A stretch of 64,000 bases of DNA from Eledone cirrhosa (taxonomy: Eukaryota), in the NCBI GenBank assembly GCA_964016885.1, contig OZ024741.1, forward strand, positions 263,934,001 through 263,998,000, given 5' to 3'. The notes beneath the pieces were generated by a model. It was not told the DNA's origin. It saw only the letters and a list, made by a program, of their open reading frames with translations, and did no database searches. Below, piece by piece: positions 8,951 to 9,700 of the stretch; within the stretch, counting starts at the first letter, position 1; each line of letters starts with the position of its first letter. Both the position numbers and the translations under genes were made by a program.

Positions 8951-9700
8951 AAGAATTCATATTTAGTAACATATATCTACATACAGATGCATATCAATGC
9001 TAGCAAATATATAGGTTTTGTCTTAGTAACTTTGTGGTTCAATGCATGGGGTTACAGAACAATAATATTTATTCCATATTCGGAAAATATATTTATTCCA
9101 TTCCAGAAACTAATTAGTTGGAAGTGATATTTTAGTAAGTAAGTTAATTTTATAATTTTCTTATTTTACGTCTCTCATATTATTGTTCTGCAACCCCATG
9201 CATTGAACCACAAAGTTACTAAGACAAAACCTATATATTTGCTAGCATTGATATGCATCTGTATGTATATATATGTTACTAAATATTAATTCTTTATAAT
9301 TATCTCCAAATTATTTGTCGAGCAATATTGGCCATGACTGCTGCTATGGTAGCAGGCAGGCCGCTGTCTTATTAGCAAACCACTTTCCACTGATTGACCT
9401 CAATGTCACGTGATTGATTCTTTTTGAATTTGCCACCGACGCAGAGGCAGTGATTTTCTCAATGGCTTGGAATTCAGTTCACGCTTTGCTATTTTCTATC
9501 CACTGAATTATTTTTTAATAAGTTTCCAGTGTCCACGCTTTGCCTGGATACTTAGATGAGAATAGTCTTCCCTGACGACGGAATGATTCTCTGTATTTTC
9601 TTCGGAAAATATATTTATTCCATTCCAGAAACTAATTAGTTGGAAGTGATATTTTAGTAAGTAAGTTAATTTTATAATTTTCTTATTTTACGTCTCTCAT
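8951..9700 (+). mobile_element. HHR-bearing Penelope-like/retrozyme element (522-bp monomer, ~1.2 copies, inverted end) in (TA)n
   Basis: gaaactaattagttggaag at 9106 and 9628 (period 522). 8951-9067 is inverted relative to 9178-9295. Homologous to the 554-bp unit. Confidence 0.75.
9567..9646 (+). ncRNA. Type I hammerhead ribozyme
   Basis: cttcc-CTGACGA-c-ggaatg...cattcc-a-GAAAC-taatta-GTT-ggaag: stems I and II, palindromic stem III AACTAATTAGTT, GUU triplet. Confidence 0.75.

Follow-up and report, generated by a model that had tools for sequence, protein, structure and literature searches.

The 522-bp repeat at positions 9179–9700 of the window (the whole stretch of 64,000 nucleotides that was analysed, from contig OZ024741.1 of Eledone cirrhosa) is very probably a non-autonomous element of the Penelope-like (PLE) type that carries a hammerhead ribozyme under selection. 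Elements of this kind are known already; more is to be learned from a strict rule for its two insertion ends, here called A and B, from a long structured tail, and from a predicted helix that would lock the ribozyme. On balance we favour the reading that the unit is a protein-less dispersed repeat of ~520–560 bp, likely a retrozyme whose insertion into (TA)n tracts depends on a Penelope-like enzyme supplied in trans.

The element occupies 8947–9700 and consists of unit positions 1–120 in inverted orientation, a 100-nt unit end, and one whole unit, with (TA)n on both sides. The 522-bp unit, on the plus strand, is non-coding and is preceded by the partial tandem repeat and the inverted arm. The partial repeat (9079–9178) is 100% identical to the final 100 nt of the unit, while the inverted repeat of the first 120 nt (~8947–9068) has 3 differences among 116 compared sites. 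No ORF of at least 150 aa was found in 8951–9700, and so nothing like the RT plus GIY-YIG ORF that marks an autonomous PLE. The features of the element and of the sister array are:

8899–8950, no strand: (TA)n target, left, following (TC)n (from the sequence)
8947–9068, minus: inverted arm, unit positions 1–120, with its outer end at site B; the boundary is ambiguous by ~4 nt inside TA
9069–9078, plus: junction filler; 9065–9077 repeats 9611–9623
9079–9178, plus: 5'-truncated tandem repeat that includes the hammerhead's 3' half; predicted cut at 9119/9120
9179–9700, plus: complete 522-bp unit; its outer end, 9700, is site A
9179–9298, plus: 120-nt tail between candidate priming sites A and B; predicted hairpins at 9185–9208 and ~9243–9278
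9381–9396, plus: predicted anti-ribozyme or ligation-splint strand, pairing with 9633–9648, 254/268 nt away
9405–9420, plus: conserved GTCACGTGATTGATTC block (from sequence comparison)
9558–9563, plus: predicted 5' strand of a pseudoknot, GAGAAT, complement of ATTCTC at 9586–9591
9567–9646, plus: type I hammerhead (predicted fold)
9567–9571/9642–9646, plus: hammerhead stem I
9572–9578, plus: hammerhead core, with an extra C at 9579 and an extra A at 9627
9580–9585/9621–9626, plus: hammerhead stem IIa
9592–9600/9605–9613, plus: hammerhead stem IIb with a UUCG loop
9631–9640, plus: hammerhead palindrome; predicted cut at 9641/9642
9701–9717, no strand: (TA)n target, right (from the sequence)
11989–14300, minus: sister family array, 4.2 tandem 554-bp units, with its outer end at site A
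14302–14643, plus: inverted arm of the sister family, with its outer end at site B

The sequence-only reading had described the 522-bp monomer as homologous to the 554-bp unit, with the same tandem-plus-inverted layout in (TA)n. This was borne out: the unit aligns with the 554-bp array at ~71% identity over ~620 nt (E 7e-75), and all of the strings that were quoted are present. The element has only one complete hammerhead (9567–9646), the upstream partial repeat having the 3' half only. The repeated segment at the junction filler is consistent with a local template switch. The GTCACGTGATTGATTC block is E-box-like, and we take it to be a possible promoter. A GTAAGT after the ribozyme resembles a splice donor; no conserved acceptor was seen by eye. 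Two runs in contig form covered 28/30 and 29/30 bins, and none of the pieces listed for them crosses the inversion junction.

Further features are found elsewhere in the window. A near-duplicate GA-rich segment flanks the element (8340–8670 and 10100–10440), and a third (TA)n-associated family, whose ends have an inverted junction, lies at 7735–7885 and 9720–9780, adjoining the right end of the element. There are two unrelated 46-bp minisatellites, at 11226–11431 (4.5 copies) and 45876–47098 (26.8 copies). Further hammerhead-like motifs are located at 37671 (plus), 37964 (minus), and 19774 (plus); the motifs at 37671 and 37964 point towards one another, with GAAAT-palindrome-ATA in common. A LINE-like region on the minus strand (47418–50559) has a 909-aa RVT_1 ORF and a zf-RVT frame that scores below the cutoff, and at 25940–26749 (minus) an integrase core is matched weakly, with a score under the Pfam cutoff. 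Repeats on the flanks have an octopod appearance.

The hammerhead pattern CTGANGAC-N35-65-AGAAACTAATTAGT had 10,309 matches in the 3.0-Gb genome and 0 in the control, and a 17-mer of the motif had 13,096 and 1, respectively; the motif is therefore not due to chance. The exact motif of the window element's subfamily was matched 55 times. Units of the superfamily are mostly 520–560 bp, and four family representatives are 73–88% identical. The loci examined – the best matches to the unit, the first listed pattern matches on contig C1, variant matches, and further subfamily copies – are a small, non-random sample of the ~10,000 motifs. The 522-bp unit is a member of a non-coding Penelope-type (retrozyme) superfamily with many families, and at the family level a type I hammerhead is found in each non-coding tandem unit. 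With 1.2 units and a single full motif, the copy at 8947–9700 falls short of the two units by which a retrozyme is recognised in bioRxiv 10.64898/2026.07.22.740005; the 554-bp array has enough.

The motif of the 522-bp unit is CTTCC CTGACGA C GGAATG..CATTCC A GAAAC TAATTA GTT GGAAG, and that of the 554-bp unit is ACTCC CTGATGA C GCAATG..CATTGC A GAAAC TAATTA GTT GGAGT. They have the CUGANGA and GAAA core, the NUH site, and helices I–III in the order of a type I hammerhead. The earlier observations that stem II changes from gcaatg/cattgc to ggaatg/cattcc and the variable core base from T to C both hold for these motifs. The strings given for stem I (actcc/ggagt and cttcc/ggaag) are also present, but in the alignment the change is not a set of two substitutions; it is a paired T/A insertion (C-TCC/GGA-G to CTTCC/GGAAG) together with loss of the outer A-T pair. 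This paired T/A is found in 6 representatives, is absent in 11, and is one-sided in 2.

Covariation was assessed in 19 hand-picked family representatives against a home-made, tree-aware null that is R-scape-like but is not R-scape itself. Stem IIa is 100% paired in all 19, with four types at pair 2 (UA, AU, GC, and CG) and two at pair 5, and in the distal helix IIb, which the sequence-only reading had not noted, there were double changes at 4/4 counted pairs. In a 96-column structure-anchored alignment, two stem IIa pairs were significant over all pairs (E 0.007 and 0.013) and one IIb pair over the proposed pairs (E 0.03). A blind scan of 300 unedited columns in 21 sequences ranked hammerhead pairs 1, 4, and 6 (E 0.11, 2.1, and 7.5), the two IIa pairs being ranks 1 and 6 (E 0.11 and 7.5), and gave no hammerhead pair at E<0.05. 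The sequence-only reading had proposed that covariation indicates selection on RNA structure and that the family should be checked for it; the claim stood up over the 96 columns, where the tree-aware null was beaten, though not at E<0.05 in the blind scan.

If the hammerhead were a relic and its paired changes a coincidence of phylogeny, few independent events would be expected, and there are in fact only two double-change branches for each stem IIa pair. The blind-scan values of E 0.11 and above fit a relic as well, as does Rfam, which had no hammerhead match at the gathering score in the whole window or, even below threshold, at E<=10 in the unit. Against this, the core and the palindrome are invariant while the flanks diverge by up to 27%, stem IIa is fully paired in spite of four pair types, and the null was rejected for the proposed pairs. 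We regard a relic as extremely improbable. Selection on the hammerhead fold appears well supported by the aligned sequences, on few events, and we infer that the ribozyme is catalytically active.

The helix III palindrome has an energy of +1.5 kcal/mol as a hairpin and −9.0 kcal/mol as a 10-bp duplex. With an unstable hairpin and a stable duplex, the ribozyme is thus of the dimer type described in PMC4209133. By the double-hammerhead model, a read-through transcript of the 8947–9700 locus could cut only at 9119/9120. When folded alone, the hammerhead regions were no more stable than shuffles (z −0.32 and −1.35), and the 554 version misfolds. GAGAAT and ATTCTC probably form a pseudoknot of 5–7 bp. 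Its pairs are not individually significant within the superfamily; across nine lineages, which were picked after inspection and some of which are related, pairing with the own partner beats all but 8 of 362,880 permutations.

A C..A pair closing stem II had been taken as invariant and as the possible mark of a variant hammerhead. It is common to the two window elements, but not to the genome, where 472 matches are without the C; among 100 of these that were listed, ~60 have A (mostly one clade) and ~35 have T, as counted by eye. The invariant pair is G10.1-C11.1 (19/19 representatives), one step inside C..A, and an alternative register would put a C.A mismatch at 10.1-11.1. C11.1 is not directly followed by G12, as a fixed extra A intervenes; this A before GAAA is missing from only 45 scattered matches. 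For PLE hammerheads, PMC4209133 gives the consensus CUGANGAH G..C GAAAN-palindrome-NUH, in which C is common at H and GUU is common, so the extra C is the known extra nucleotide after A9. Figure S3 of the same paper has AGAAA in 1 of 56 motifs, by row order that of the Cotesia bracovirus PLE, and a literature search for a description of the extra-A insertion found nothing beyond this motif. The simplest reading of the sequences would be a canonical G10.1-C11.1 with a known extra base and a rare extra A, and only the A is left of the proposed variant. For the most part, both the covariation and the C-A point could have been anticipated from what was described for PLE hammerheads in 2014 (PMC4209133).

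The insertions have the anatomy of EN+ PLE insertions: 5' truncation, partial tandem, and an inverted 5' arm. Their target is a microsatellite, and target-site duplications are unreadable in (TA)n. Outer ends lie at the unit end (site A, 9700) or at unit position ~120 (site B, 9298) in 154 of 168 arms, a count from which three loci and one complex locus were left out. Both ends are on these sites in 46/58, 5/11, and 17/22 head-to-head pairs, the last being the replication set; 13 overlapping loci and arms of <84% identity were dropped in compiling the set of 58. All of the two-armed insertions resolved in this way are A+B (46/46, 5/5, and 17/17, or 68/68), never AA or BB, while independent choice of ends would make about half of them AA or BB. 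The rule is followed by both window elements, 522 and 554. In the remaining 23 of the 91 inverted pairs, an end lies away from these sites.

We consider it likely that priming at the two sites is coordinated. The 120-nt tail between A and B has two predicted hairpins in 11 representatives, with 92% of cells paired, double changes at 4 pairs, and G-U on the sense strand. In published PLEs, a tail of 30–40 bp is "often" at one insertion end (PMC8557442, PMC3846280), and it lies between two internal RT start sites, with a predicted dimer (PMC11167929). In the available literature, the search found no statement of strict A/B exclusivity, of a 120-nt structured tail, or of such ends on retrozymes.

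Several results bear on the template. Derived variants are shared between the arms of an insertion well above the level in shuffled pairs (13 compared to 2.3, and 67 compared to 23.3), and divergence is 2.6% between arms and 1.9% between tandem copies (18 versus 13 of 31 loci). Two templates for the two arms were therefore rejected as the rule. Subfamilies are mixed in the arms of L028 and in the tandem copies of L073, which is evidence against a strict single template. Arm junctions mostly overlap by 0–4 nt (33/56), and 64 of the 154 arms are longer than one unit. The predicted cut site is crossed by 139/154 arms, and arm 5' ends are not enriched there: 2/154 compared to 2.0 expected, and by eye 1/55 A/B arms in the replication set. 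The loci had been selected for an intact motif, however, and such a selection disfavours ends at the cut. From the crossing of the cut and the lack of enrichment there, a cleaved linear monomer was rejected as the usual template. The common 5' end of L044, L045, and L085 was set aside as the product of segmental copies.

Folded as a circle, the whole unit has an energy of −123.9, compared to −96.7 +/- 5.2 in 40 shuffles (z −5.3). The flank of the cut site pairs with unit positions ~205–225 in 22 of 29 cluster representatives. Of 17 family representatives, 16 have this lock site as the best partner of the cut-site segment, with p<=0.05 in 12. The lock strand is 251–261 nt upstream in units of 521–554 nt, near the opposite side of the circle, and it tracks the stem I indel (CACTCC-type with GGAGTG, and CACTTTC with GGAAGTG). 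As modelled, the helix formed by 9381–9396 would splint the cut ends and block refolding of the hammerhead. The indel echo is a single event, and the changes are otherwise one-sided only, mostly tolerated transitions. RNAalifold puts the helix in another register, and the lock strand could be an old inverted duplication. According to the Discussion of PMC7229834, most metazoan retrozyme circles are without such a block, some mussel ones excepted.

A cycle of four steps can be proposed. Tandem transcripts would cleave themselves in the form of double hammerheads, since the only stable state of helix III is the 10-bp palindrome duplex of two copies. In the monomer, the strand at 9381–9396 is predicted to hold the cut ends for ligation and then to lock the circle. 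The two-hairpin tail would be recognised by an RT-endonuclease, which is probably dimeric, and both nicked target strands would serve as primers, the first at site A and the second at site B. From there each cDNA would extend upstream over a variable distance, often beyond a single unit, until the two are joined head to head. The full version of this scheme, in which a PLE RT-endonuclease dimer on the 120-nt tail obligatorily primes both strands on a single RNA, each at its own side of the tail, this RNA is a self-splinting, self-locking ribozyme circle in the style of viroids, and the pseudoknotted hammerhead with the extra A makes up a separate, active subclass, is tentative and somewhat unlikely as a whole. 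A circular template, taken by itself, has an even chance.

PLE hammerheads cleave weakly (PMC4209133), 8/9 Xenopus retrozyme dimers did not cleave (bioRxiv 10.64898/2026.07.22.740005), and ribozymes are unmentioned in the available part of PMC13282606. For an Anolis PLE in vitro, ribozyme cleavage was dispensable, unprocessed RNA was used, and there was no strand difference in the start site (PMC11167929). In the same system catalytic mutants insert normally, as would be expected if two-site priming used an uncleaved linear multimer from tandem loci, the hammerhead being kept for another step (transcript release, or protein-assisted late cutting) and the lock helix merely keeping it off. Such a multimer could come from the long superfamily arrays in L161, L171, and L173, which have 12 to 18 or more units; the mixed-subfamily tandem of L073 is in keeping with it, and the crossing of the cut site by 139/154 arms fits a multimer and a circle equally well. 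However, no 5'-end pile-up marks a start of transcription, the lock strand is near-opposite on the unit (arcs of 251–261 of 521–554 nt), and retrozyme circRNAs are documented for mussel, coral, and axolotl (PMC7229834). An uncleaved multimer is, in our view, rather unlikely.

The array of L161 has variants that recur every three units, as seen by eye, suggesting later unequal crossover. This spacing also fits a model proposed in bioRxiv 10.64898/2026.07.22.740005, by which the units would be pLTRs, 5'-truncated ends derived from an autonomous PLE that escaped notice, and would have spread in place as satellite DNA instead of being mobilised by themselves. That origin seems highly improbable here: tandem junctions join the unit end to the unit start with no ORF between them, copies are on many contigs, each with its own 5' ends and with fixed A/B ends, and no contiguous upstream endonuclease sequence was found in the loci screened.

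No PLE ORF contiguous with the unit was found by tblastn in the loci screened (L001–L121 and L152–L191). PLE RT and GIY-YIG ORFs are abundant nearby, but they are parts of different families that are nested within these (TA)n tracts as well, and none of those screened carries the end of the unit. Six candidates for an autonomous partner (L061, L097, L153, L167, L004, and L107) have PLE ORFs with different 3' ends and were rejected. One other PLE family has a two-armed end in the window at 14659–15277, with a ~40-nt tail on one arm only and, by eye, no CTGANGA core in its 3' end; its relatives in L097 and L153 have pieces of RT and GIY-YIG. In L097 and L005 a PLE of this type is fused to units of the studied superfamily without a TA spacer. 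Co-mobilisation was not accepted for these fusions, as nested insertion explains them equally well. L061 (4434–8200, minus) and L122–L151 contain an abundant young PLE, with 150 scored endonuclease matches that are 93–100% identical, a 3' UTR that is long and rich in microsatellites, and a different hammerhead; from its linker motif we take it to be Neptune-like. Other families with a CTGANGAC-G..C-AGAAAC frame, which the search pattern forces, are found in L152–L160 and L162–L168, and several of these have upstream/loop complementarity of their own.

Both the mechanism of tandem and inverted insertion and the role of the hammerhead in PLEs are stated to be open (PMC8557442, PMC11167929). The 522-nt element is a compact substrate for these two questions, with ~10,000 related motifs, the A/B rule, the two-hairpin tail, and natural compensatory variants. 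That each arm has a different fixed end is likely a clue to how Penelope-type DNA is inserted, and the A/B ends tie the spread of retrozymes to PLE machinery beyond mere co-occurrence.

The superfamily resembles the metazoan non-LTR retrozymes (Cervera and de la Pena 2020, PMC7229834; Li et al. 2026, bioRxiv 10.64898/2026.07.22.740005) in its non-coding tandem units, type I hammerhead, GC content below 50%, thousands of copies, and PLEs in the same genome. Its units are 520–560 bp, compared to 150–450 bp (PMC7229834) and 51–972 bp (bioRxiv 10.64898/2026.07.22.740005). A further difference is the predicted self-sequestration of the cut site, which most metazoan retrozymes are without (PMC7229834), and another is the full two-site signature of PLEs at the insertion ends.

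The PLE hammerheads of Cervera and de la Pena 2014 (PMC4209133) are alike in CUGANGAH, G10.1-C11.1, a short helix I, a palindromic helix III, and GUU. The present ones differ in the fixed extra A (1/56 there), a long bipartite helix II, the probable 5–7-bp pseudoknot, and a 6-nt palindromic loop.

With EN+ PLE insertions (Arkhipova 2013, PMC3846280; Craig 2021, PMC8557442; Frangieh 2024, PMC11167929) the elements share partial tandems, a head-to-head inverted arm, (TA)n bias, a tail at one end, and two internal start sites. The tail here is 120 nt with conserved predicted hairpins, whereas it is 30–40 nt in EN+ PLEs, and there is no ORF; its restriction to one end is strict here (68/68), whereas those papers call it "often" or "optional". 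Plant LTR retrozymes and hammerhead viroids, according to the Discussion of PMC7229834, are alike in a predicted block of the ribozyme by a complementary strand in the monomer. In contrast to them, the hammerhead here is type I rather than type III, no LTR, PBS, or PPT was seen in the element, and its ends are of the PLE type.
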